Below are positions 10,016 through 11,470 of a DNA stretch of 24,000 nt, one piece after another. The notes below the pieces were generated by a model, which had not been told where the DNA came from, did not search any database, and was given only the letters and a program-made list of their open reading frames with translations. Origin of the DNA: Desulfarculaceae bacterium (GTDB lineage: Bacteria; Desulfobacterota; Desulfarculia; Desulfarculales; Desulfarculaceae). Location of the stretch: the NCBI GenBank assembly GCA_963675675.1, contig OY776512.1, forward strand, positions 6,031,966 through 6,055,965. The letters are read 5' to 3'. The translations under genes and the position numbers were made by a program. Position 1 is the first letter of the stretch; each line of letters opens with the position of its first letter.

Positions 10016-11131
10016 ATGGAAATAGACCTTGCGCCGGTTCCGGAATACCAAACCGGTTTTACGGCCATGGACGATCTGACCGCTCCGCCGCCGCAGCAAT
10101 ATGAAATTCCAAGCCATGAGCAGGCTTTTGTGCACGGCGCCTGCGAATCGGTCATAGGCAGAATACCCAGGGTGAACTCCCATCTGCGGGCCAAGGATTA
10201 TTGGGGAGCCATCAAGGTGCGCTGCGGTTTCGGACGCTCGGACTACAAGGTGGAGCCGGGACTGTATGCCCTCAATAATCCGGCCCCGGACAGCGAGGTG
10301 CTCATCTCGGCGAATTACAAGCTCAGCTTTGACAGCCTGCGCAGCAAGCTCAAGGGGCGTGACCTCTGGATTTTGGTGCTGGACACCGCCGGCGTAAATG
10401 TTTGGTGCGCGGCGGGCAAGCAGACCATGGGTTCGGATAATCTGGTCGAAACCATAAAAAGCAGCGGGCTGGCCAAGGTGGTGAACCACCGCCGTTTGAT
10501 AGCGCCTCAGCTGGCCGGACCCGGCATCTCGGCTTTTAAGGTGAAGAAAGCCTCGGGATTCGAGGTGCTGTGGGGGCCGATCCTGGCCGGGGATCTGCCG
10601 GCCTATTTGGAAAACGGGCGCAAGGCCACCCCAGAAATGCGCGAGAGGGGTTTTCCCCTTTTGGACCGTGCGGTCTTGGTGCCAAATGAAATAAAGGCTA
10701 TGATCAAGCTCGCGGTCTCGTGCCTGCCGGTGTTTCAAATCATGGGGGTTGTCACCACTGCCGGGCCCTGGGTGCAGGGCTTGGAGCGCGGGACCTTGGG
10801 GCTTTTGTGGACCCTGGGCGGCGGAATGGCGGGCGGGGCCTTGGGGCCGCTTTTGCTCCCCTGGCTGCCGGGCCGGGCCTTTGCCTTAAAAGCGCTGGGG
10901 CCCGCAGTGGTGTTTGGTTTGTTCATCCTGGCCGTGCACGGCTTCGCCGATCCGAGCGGCTGGGGCCTGGTGCTCTTGAGCGGGGCCTATGGCTCATTCA
11001 TGCTGATGAATTTTACCGGCTCGTCCACTTATACTTCGCTTTCCGGAGTCAAGCGCGAGATGCGTCTGGCCGTGCCCCTGCAGGCGGGATCAGCCGCGCT
11101 GGGCGCGCTTCTGTGGCTGTTTGGGGGTTGA
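10016..11131 (+). CDS. hgcA: Mercury methylation corrinoid protein HgcA, 371 aa
   Basis: - Cap-helix signature NVWCAAGK at nt 10397-10420 (Cys codon 10406-10408).
- That signature lies within ...GLYALNNPAPDSEVLISANYKLSFDSLRSKLKGRDLWILVLDTAGVNVWCAAGKQT..., a corrinoid-binding-domain-like region.
- The C-terminal ~150 aa is a Gly/Ala/Leu-rich multi-helix membrane domain.
- Start chosen at ATG 10016, with GGAG at 10003-10006, rather than the TTG at 10001 used by the ORF track. Confidence 0.9.
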   Translation: MEIDLAPVPEYQTGFTAMDDLTAPPPQQYEIPSHEQAFVHGACESVIGRIPRVNSHLRAKDYWGAIKVRCGFGRSDYKVEPGLYALNNPAPDSEVLISANYKLSFDSLRSKLKGRDLWILVLDTAGVNVWCAAGKQTMGSDNLVETIKSSGLAKVVNHRRLIAPQLAGPGISAFKVKKASGFEVLWGPILAGDLPAYLENGRKATPEMRERGFPLLDRAVLVPNEIKAMIKLAVSCLPVFQIMGVVTTAGPWVQGLERGTLGLLWTLGGGMAGGALGPLLLPWLPGRAFALKALGPAVVFGLFILAVHGFADPSGWGLVLLSGAYGSFMLMNFTGSSTYTSLSGVKREMRLAVPLQAGSAALGALLWLFGG

Positions 11132-11143
11132 AAGGGATAAGAT

Positions 11144-11470
11144 ATGTCTGGCTTTCGCTACATCGAGGATGCGGTCACCTTGGAATTTGAGCCCGAAAAG
11201 TGCGTGGGCTGCGGGGCCTGCTCGGCGGTTTGCCCCCATGCGGTTTTTGTGCAGCAAAACGGCAAGGCGGAAATGGCGGACCGGGGAGCCTGCATGGAGT
11301 GCGGAGCCTGCATGATCAACTGCCCCACCCAGGCCATTACGGTTGAGGTGGGGGTGGGCTGCGCATCAGCGGTGCTTAGAACCAGCATGGGCTTCTCGGG
11401 CTGCGACTGCGAATGCAGCCTTGATGATTATCGGAAACCGGCTGGGGGAAAAGGCGCGTCTTGCTGCTGA
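11144..11470 (+). CDS. hgcB: Mercury methylation ferredoxin HgcB, 2x[4Fe-4S], 108 aa
   Basis: Starts 13 nt after the hgcA stop. N-terminus MSGFRYIEDAVTLEF. Two cluster motifs, CVGCGACSAVCP and CMECGACMINCP, then GVGCASAV, a Cys-rich tail GCDCECS, and a terminal vicinal pair SCC. Confidence 0.9.
   Translation: MSGFRYIEDAVTLEFEPEKCVGCGACSAVCPHAVFVQQNGKAEMADRGACMECGACMINCPTQAITVEVGVGCASAVLRTSMGFSGCDCECSLDDYRKPAGGKGASCC

Follow-up and report, generated by a model that had tools for sequence, protein, structure and literature searches.

A probable two-gene hgcAB mercury-methylation pair in a Desulfarculaceae bacterium, with an HgcA N-terminal extension free of cysteine and selenocysteine

The question raised by positions 10016-11470 of the Desulfarculaceae bacterium stretch on contig OY776512.1 (analysed over its whole length of 24,000 nucleotides, hereafter the window) was whether two adjacent genes form a true hgcA-hgcB pair and mark their host as a mercury methylator, as an earlier reading made from the sequence alone (the sequence-only reading) had proposed. 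The analysis showed that they very probably constitute a genuine, intact two-gene hgcAB operon and, by inference from the pair of ND132 (Pseudodesulfovibrio mercurii / Desulfovibrio desulfuricans; DND132_1056/1057), a mercury-methylation pair. Direct support was obtained here for family membership, for the presence and alignment of the known essential residues, for the fold, for an arrangement as two separate genes and for purifying selection. By analogy, the pair would bind its cofactor, pass on electrons, use the methyl donor and produce methylmercury as in ND132, and on the same grounds the host is likely to be a Hg methylator, a proposal supported by profile matches, residue alignment and the exclusion of paralogues. 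The system itself is known and is identified by a curated annotation hidden Markov model (HMM); what is new is a somewhat divergent hgcAB member. Its distinctive feature, missed by the sequence-only reading, is an HgcA N-terminal extension without cysteine (Cys) or selenocysteine (Sec, U).

Searches with curated profile HMMs showed that HgcA scored 370.1 bits against the NF040863 HgcA equivalog (cutoff 275, E 8.9e-111), with residues 50-369 aligned on profile positions 1-321 of 325. HgcB scored 114.5 bits against the NF040864 HgcB equivalog (cutoff 99, E 1.5e-33), with residues 5-108 aligned on profile positions 1-93 of 93. Both proteins were over their cutoffs and chance is excluded at these E values, which bore out the proposed pair. 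The ATG start of hgcA was preferred to a TTG at 10001 because of the GGAGA Shine-Dalgarno sequence, and the resulting length also equals that of the database protein P0001 (NCBI/ENA), which is the same 371-aa HgcA. The coordinates of all features are as in Table 1.

The cap-helix motif NVWCAAGK and its Cys codon were found where the sequence-only reading had placed them. Residues N128, V129, W130, C131, G134 and K135 were invariant in a 55-sequence HgcA alignment, the cap-helix Cys aligned with that of ND132, and Cys131 is predicted to coordinate the cobalt as its lower axial ligand. The AlphaFold2 model of HgcA (predicted local distance difference test score, pLDDT, 87; predicted template modelling score 0.79) showed a corrinoid domain of Rossmann-like fold in which residues 129-134 form a short helix. 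The multi-helix membrane domain claimed for the C-terminal half was confirmed as hydrophobic and as five predicted helices at residues 222-247, 252-283, 294-308, 313-336 and 342-370, all at high pLDDT, with an invariant motif M-N-F-T-G-x-S-T-x-T-S-x-S-G-V at residues 331-345. The top PDB match in a Foldseek search was the ND132 HgcA model 9a0b_A (44% identity, E 3.5e-21). No experimental HgcAB structure was found in the PDB by sequence search, and the fold search gave only a 2020 integrative model.

The downstream gene was confirmed to encode a two-cluster ferredoxin with a terminal Cys-Cys. It lies on the same strand as hgcA after a spacer of 12 nt, its ATG starting at the 13th base past the hgcA stop, and is preceded by a Shine-Dalgarno sequence AGGGA. 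HgcB carries Cys at positions 20, 23, 26, 30, 50, 53, 56, 60, 73, 87, 89, 91, 107 and 108, and for the nine Cys from 20 to 73 the numbering was identical to that published for ND132 HgcB, with which the Cys residues align. Sec read-through past the terminal Cys-Cys was rejected because the HMM ends exactly there.

Table 1. Features of the hgcAB locus and its neighbourhood (window coordinates unless a locus is named)
Feature	Position	Strand	Details
hgcA, corrinoid protein of the Hg-methylation pair	10016..11131	+	ATG 10016, TGA 11131, 371 aa
Shine-Dalgarno sequence GGAGA	10003..10007	+	8 nt 5' of hgcA ATG; read from sequence
Candidate sigma-70-like promoter for hgcAB, TTGACA-17 nt-TATCGT	9928..9956	+	Consensus scan, 10/12 matches
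HgcA N-terminal extension, residues 1-49	10016..10162	+	Outside the HgcA HMM; HMM match from residue 50
Cap-helix motif NVWCAAGK, residues 128-135	10397..10420	+	Cys131 codon TGC at 10406-10408
HgcA transmembrane domain, five helices, residues 222-370	10679..11128	+	AlphaFold2 and hydropathy
hgcB, 2[4Fe-4S] ferredoxin partner	11144..11470	+	ATG 11144, TGA 11470, 108 aa
First CxxCxxCxxxCP motif, CVGCGACSAVCP, Cys20/23/26/30	11201..11236	+	Numbering as in ND132 HgcB
Second cluster motif, CMECGACMINCP, Cys50/53/56/60, C(M/I)ECGA type	11291..11326	+	Numbering as in ND132 HgcB
Cys73 in GVGCA	11360..11362	+	Strictly conserved; about 12 residues past the second cluster motif; number as in ND132
Mid-tail Cys cluster C87-D-C89-E-C91	11402..11416	+	Position in sequence
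C-terminal pair Cys107-Cys108, last two residues	11462..11467	+	Position in sequence
MaoC-like hot-dog protein, 157 aa	9337-9810	-	Pfam PF01575, E 5.7e-18
Phe/Tyr-rich leader ORF (open reading frame), MVMKKFRSYYSFYFFFSTIHPGG	12276-12347		Upstream of 12523-14418
Perfect 14-bp hairpin	12328-12341 / 12365-12378		Overlaps end of leader ORF
Terminator and T-run	12401-12432		After the 14-bp hairpin
DAHP (3-deoxy-D-arabino-heptulosonate 7-phosphate) synthase (FXD domain)-prephenate dehydratase-ACT fusion, 631 aa	12523-14418		Pfam/profile matches
Candidate attenuator loci elsewhere	L085; L086 1240-1470; L087 1319-1475; L088 1312-1475; L089 1227-1445		

Both genes were intact and maintained. Locus L085, from a same-species assembly (98.7% DNA identity, same gene order), and the more distant locus L001 (75% protein identity) carried hgcAB with the same upstream synteny. 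The ratio of nonsynonymous to synonymous substitution rates (dN/dS) was 0.08 against L085 and 0.16 against L001 for hgcA, and 0.05 and 0.17, respectively, for hgcB. Both genes are therefore under purifying selection, and the pair, which resembles a small operon, is apparently co-transcribed. A candidate promoter was located about 60 nt 5' of the hgcA start by pattern match alone, with both hexamers unchanged in L085.

The organisation agreed closely with that of ND132, where the two genes are also adjacent and in the same order. ND132 HgcA likewise combines a CFeSP-like corrinoid domain (CFeSP, corrinoid iron-sulfur protein), the cap helix N-V-W-C-A-A-G-K and a five-helix membrane domain, and five transmembrane helices have been described for HgcA (PMC7305189). 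ND132 HgcB shares the iron-sulfur (Fe-S) cysteines 20/23/26/60 and 30/50/53/56, Cys73 and the C-terminal Cys-Cys (PMC7305189). The differences were that the ND132 HgcA extension contains PCUGP (Cys-Sec; Haft 2022) whereas the window extension has neither Cys nor Sec, that ND132 HgcB is 95 aa long with only the terminal CC in its tail whereas window HgcB is 108 aa long with an extra C-D-C-E-C, and that arsR2 lies directly upstream of and is co-transcribed with the ND132 pair whereas the window has a divergent MaoC-like gene and no adjacent regulator.

By analogy with ND132, HgcA would be held in the cytoplasmic membrane by its five C-terminal helices, with the cytoplasmic CFeSP-like domain binding a corrinoid whose lower axial ligand would be the Cys131 thiolate ("Cys-on"). 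HgcB, as a 2[4Fe-4S] ferredoxin, would reduce the cobalt to Co(I), which would take up a methyl group and move it onto Hg(II); S-adenosylmethionine is the methyl donor of HgcAB according to PMC11588087 and would serve the same role here. Delivery of Hg(II) and removal of CH3Hg+ may be carried out by Cys73 and the flexible Cys-rich HgcB tail (Cys87/89/91 and Cys107/108).

Uncultured Thermodesulfobacteriota, represented by Syntrophales, Desulfobacterales and Desulfarculaceae metagenome-assembled genomes (MAGs), encoded HgcA proteins with 47-53% full-length identity to window HgcA and the same domain order; examples are P0007 from "Candidatus Desulfatibia" and the Desulfarculaceae loci L046 and L051. 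Their HgcB proteins resembled that of the window in tail length (median 35 residues past Cys73) and in the modal count of five Cys. Unlike window HgcA, these relatives carry CU, UC, CC or CxC about 20 residues before Q-x-F-V-x-G, and in many of them a MarR-like or ArsR-like gene precedes hgcA, while none adjoins the window pair. Desulfarculales hgcA has apparently been reported in hgcA surveys of the Baltic Sea and of mangrove sediments (PMC7536318, PMC11205478). The window pair would add one more predicted methylator to an already implicated group and leaves the understanding of the system unchanged.

The N-terminal extension was surveyed in 81 hgcA loci with in-frame TGA read as Sec. According to Haft 2022 (bioRxiv 10.1101/2022.07.06.499078), an N-terminal extension is found in most HgcA proteins and carries Cys-Sec (PCUGP), or Cys-Cys in the non-selenoprotein forms. 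In the survey, 28 loci had CU or UC, 25 had CC, seven had CxC, about three had Sec without an adjacent Cys and seven had a single Cys. An extension without Cys or Sec was found in five (the window, L001, L050, L058 and the truncated L074), and in four the extension was missing (L064, L068, L083) or unreadable (L069, masked). CU, UC, CC or CxC was thus present in about 60-64 of the 81 loci, about three quarters; it is a majority feature (Haft 2022) and no formal HgcA criterion. The extensions of the window and L001 were of normal length and had the conserved G-F-T-x-(M/L)-D-x-L, while the dithiol site read L-T-A-P-P-P in the window and L-S-A-P-P-P in L001. The extension of the related protein P0003 had one Cys only, farther along, and L002 likewise had a single Cys. 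Window HgcA has kept a disordered extension in which Thr-Ala stands in place of the Cys-Sec or Cys-Cys dipeptide. A hidden Sec-containing extension was rejected because the upstream in-frame stop of window hgcA is TAA, not TGA.

A separate observation concerned the 28 of 81 loci (L007, L008, L010, L011, L015 and others) in which an in-frame TGA directly follows a Cys codon about 20 codons before the Q-x-F-V-x-G of hgcA. This position is consistent with the Cys-Sec site of Haft 2022, and database HgcA sequences are N-terminally truncated because gene callers start downstream of the in-frame TGA. The literature found on HgcA and selenocysteine comprised the preprint by Haft and, from 2026, a review of selenoproteomes with one mention of HgcA, and no experimental test of the N-terminal motif was found in it.

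The HgcB tail was surveyed in 64 HgcB sequences adjoining hgcA in reference-genome loci. The GVGC of Cys73, a residue essential in ND132 HgcB (PMC7305189), was kept in all 64, and 55 ended in CC or CCx; a role of the C-terminal Cys pair has been described for ND132 HgcB, and the variable, Cys-rich nature of the tail was already noted (PMC7305189). The tail GCDCECS...SCC, with five Cys in the last 27 residues, was present as the sequence-only reading had described, but its Cys cluster is "additional" only in comparison with ND132, since 59 of the 64 relatives had a mid-tail cluster of at least two Cys (CCC in 33, CxC in 17). The number of Cys after Cys73 had a mode of five (28/64), which is also the count in window HgcB, and the window tail of 35 residues past Cys73 equals the median. 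The exact C-x-C-x-C spacing was confined to the window subclade (CDCEC in the window, CCDCDC in L002, DCDC in L001) and is a spelling variant of a near-universal HgcB feature. Annotation of hgcB should accordingly treat Cys-rich mid-tails as the family norm and as nothing special. The idea that extra HgcB cysteines compensate for the motif absent from HgcA was rejected given the modal Cys count and median length of the window tail.

Among 5.8 billion protein clusters, only P0002 (75%) and P0003 (58%) exceeded 55% identity to window HgcA, and all others were at or below 53%; with these two, window HgcA makes up a rare subclade of three lineages. Directly after the cap helix the subclade reads G-K-Q-T-M-G-S-D where the relatives from uncultured Thermodesulfobacteriota read G-K-G-T-F-G-T-E; the subclade substitutions there are G136Q/H, F138M and E142N/T (G136Q and E142N in the window), with Y186W in addition.

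Several observations weigh against reading the window pair as an ordinary mercury-methylation operon. Residues 1-42 of the HgcA extension contain no Cys, and the Cys-Sec/Cys-Cys motif is absent. Of the positions conserved to at least 90% in other HgcA proteins, 23 are changed in window HgcA, among them position 138 (F138M), where Phe was found in 100% of 52 other aligned HgcA sequences. Nothing indicating corrinoid supply or Hg uptake was found within the 24-kb window. In the cited literature, hgcAB expression is usually very low and methylation rates differ widely among organisms with hgcAB.

These points could be taken to indicate a divergent HgcAB with changed or weakened mercury handling, in which methylation is poor, Hg(II) uptake depends on the HgcB tail only or the main substrate is a different one, a reading that was judged decidedly unlikely. 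The retained extensions without Cys or Sec in the window and L001, and with a single Cys in L002, would fit it, but ND132 HgcAB expressed in Escherichia coli was active in lysates (PMC11588087), that construct is inferred to have used the originally annotated start and hence to lack the Sec extension, and Bacteroidota-type HgcA has no extension at all. Motif loss was therefore regarded as compatible with activity, because the E. coli-expressed ND132 pair was active with the extension presumably absent. The subclade-specific substitutions would also fit, but every residue whose importance mutagenesis has shown (the cap-helix Cys of HgcA and, in HgcB, Cys73 with the C-terminal Cys-Cys) is present and the HMM score is well over the equivalog cutoff. 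Also in favour of this reading are the restriction to three lineages and the presence of a VOC/glyoxalase gene beside hgcAB in two of them, compared with none of 80 other loci. Purifying selection as strong as that on neighbouring housekeeping genes speaks against it.

A related proposal, that window HgcA, P0002 and P0003 are a rare natural variant methylating through the HgcB tail only, or a weak or non-methylating HgcAB, was considered unlikely. If the dipeptide acts in Hg(II) acquisition or methylmercury release, the subclade would depend on the HgcB tail only or would be weakly methylating or non-methylating. If it is non-methylating, hgcA-based surveys would falsely score the subclade as methylators, and the VOC/glyoxalase neighbour could point to a different native substrate. 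With the ordinary mercury-methylation pair still the preferred reading, window HgcA may be of modest value as a natural test case for whether the widespread Cys/Sec motif matters in methylation.

The next alternative was a paralogue, namely the large CFeSP subunit of the Wood-Ljungdahl pathway accompanied by a ferredoxin, or the non-methylating fused HgcAB-like protein in a split form. The sole Pfam match of HgcA was PF03599 (CdhD/CFeSP family), the PDB sequence matches were CFeSP gamma subunits, to whose cap-helix region that of HgcA aligned, and some sources label relatives "acetyl-CoA synthase subunit gamma". The CFeSP large subunit (AcsC/CdhE; 2H9A, 2YCL, 4C1N) shares the corrinoid fold over about 124 residues at 27-30% identity, and the corrinoid domains of 2YCL and 2H9A were the next Foldseek matches after ND132 HgcA (root-mean-square deviation 1.4 Å). 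Against this, the CFeSP gamma model (NF003195 / PRK04165), whose cutoff is 306, gave just 65.1 bits and covered only HgcA residues 77-201. CFeSP has no Cys at the aligned cap-helix site and no membrane domain, and its N-terminal Fe-S and TIM-barrel domains were not found in the HgcA AlphaFold2 model, where the five-helix membrane domain stands in their place. The HgcAB-like fusion (NF043039) shares the corrinoid domain and ferredoxin module but is a single polypeptide, whereas the window has two separate genes; its model has a cutoff of 285 and gave 172.8 bits for HgcA and 52.3 bits for HgcB, with each protein matching just its own module. Neighbour joining on the corrinoid domain, with a CFeSP fragment as the root, placed window HgcA, P0002 and P0003 as a trio nested inside Desulfobacterota-type HgcA, and the corrinoid-domain distance of window HgcA was 0.69 to CFeSP compared with 0.14-0.31 to HgcA proteins. 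By HMM scores and tree, HgcA grouped with neither CFeSP nor the fused paralogues. Both the HMM cutoffs and the architecture refute the paralogue reading, and its probability is next to nil. A scan of reference genomes turned up 593 loci that encode HgcA, with no hit over 52% identity.

That the pair is a silent or decaying remnant with lost expression is extremely improbable: no regulator is adjacent, the 800-bp stretch past hgcB looks degenerate, evolves about ten times faster than the flanking genes and coincides with a break of synteny with L001, and a convincing terminator after hgcB was not found, but both ORFs are intact with a Shine-Dalgarno site each, two independent comparisons gave dN/dS values of 0.05-0.17, hgcA is preceded by a promoter-like site and a regulator is likewise missing next to about 70% of hgcAB loci.

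The surroundings of the intact hgcAB pair showed little that was specific to it. The MaoC-like neighbour named by the sequence-only reading was confirmed, divergent from hgcA across 205 bp, but it is shared with the closest relatives; it occurred in the window, L085 and L001 and in no other loci, and the adjacency reflects local synteny and no functional association. No operator motif shared upstream of hgcA could be derived between the window and L001 because the MaoC-hgcA intergenic DNA of the two does not align. The absence of an adjacent ArsR/MerR regulator also held, and no ArsR, MerR or MarR regulator adjoins hgcAB and no HTH_5/MarR ORF was found near hgcA. This is not specific to the window, since among 69 relatives' loci with at least 1.3 kb upstream of hgcA a MarR-like gene was found in 15 and an ArsR-like gene in seven, together in 21, leaving about 70% with neither. 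In the cited literature, a putative regulator was found upstream of hgcAB in 112 genomes of a large set, and ArsR2 is limited to Desulfovibrionaceae.

The MarR-family protein encoded directly 5' of hgcA on the same strand was typical of many Syntrophales-type loci (15/69; for example L005 3153-3689, L006 3565-4056 and L027 777-1289). This conserved protein is marked by Cys-rich motifs, namely REIRCCSRDEAIC and, at the C-terminus, CxC or CC, and is probably the "putative regulator" of PMC7438021. Its cysteines suggest a possible role in metal sensing.

The VOC/glyoxalase gene (about 159 aa) seen beside hgcAB in two of the three subclade lineages was located 3' of the pair in one of them and 5' of it in the other (L001 11515-11994, minus strand; L002 5705-6181, minus strand; also L003 and L004). 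It was missing from the window, and a tblastn search for a remnant in the low-GC spacer of the window gave a best match of only E about 1.

The lower-GC stretch without a long ORF that follows hgcB was confirmed but has nothing to do with hgcAB. The GC content of 11471-12522 was 0.44-0.49 compared with 0.58-0.67 in the flanking genes, and its longest ORF was at most 58 aa. Comparison of 11471-12276 with L085 showed about 100 differences per kb against 7-21 per kb in the flanking genes, with islands unchanged at 11715-11832 (containing the palindrome ATAAATGATTAAATCATTTAT) and 12049-12507. Synteny with L001 breaks 3' of hgcB because the VOC/glyoxalase gene and other genes follow hgcB there. No RNA gene was found in the whole window with Rfam at gathering thresholds, a tRNA/tmRNA search was negative, and Rfam in E-value mode over 11400-12600 gave chance-level matches only. 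The stretch is a fast-evolving spacer followed by a putative regulatory leader of the next gene.

That next gene encodes the DAHP synthase-prephenate dehydratase-ACT fusion. The same architecture was present in all 120 best database hits (Syntrophobacteria, Desulfomonile and Desulfobaccales), which the sources name just "DAHP synthase"; the fusion is therefore a lineage-wide feature, and its novelty was rejected as it is widespread in Thermodesulfobacteriota. The leader region 12276-12445 had a fold z-score of -4.3 and matched no Rfam family. In four further lineages of Thermodesulfobacteriota, one of them Desulforhabdus amnigena, the orthologue is likewise preceded by a Phe/Tyr-rich leader peptide with two hairpins. 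Judged from these sequence features, the leader looks like an undescribed aromatic-amino-acid transcription attenuator and is proposed as a candidate.

Further observations were made elsewhere in the window. The IlvD protein at the 5' end shared 69% identity with that of Dethiosulfatarculus sandiegensis and likewise with those of Desulfarculaceae MAGs, with closer IlvD relatives in ENA metagenome assemblies. The host is an uncultured, sulfate-reducer-like member of the Thermodesulfobacteriota whose nearest named relatives are Desulfarculaceae. Directly past the stop of the Ldh_2 gene, an element of about 258 bp resembling a miniature inverted-repeat transposable element was found at 14629-14892, with 28-nt terminal inverted repeats (14629-14656 / 14861-14888, 82% complementary) and a flanking duplicated TAACCC; locus L085, 99% identical in other respects, lacks it. 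Finally, a 2519-aa hybrid sensor kinase is encoded at 1772-9331, combining periplasmic binding-protein domains and numerous PAS domains with a kinase core, receivers and Hpt, and its dN/dS between the two strains was 0.43 compared with 0.05-0.11 for neighbouring genes.

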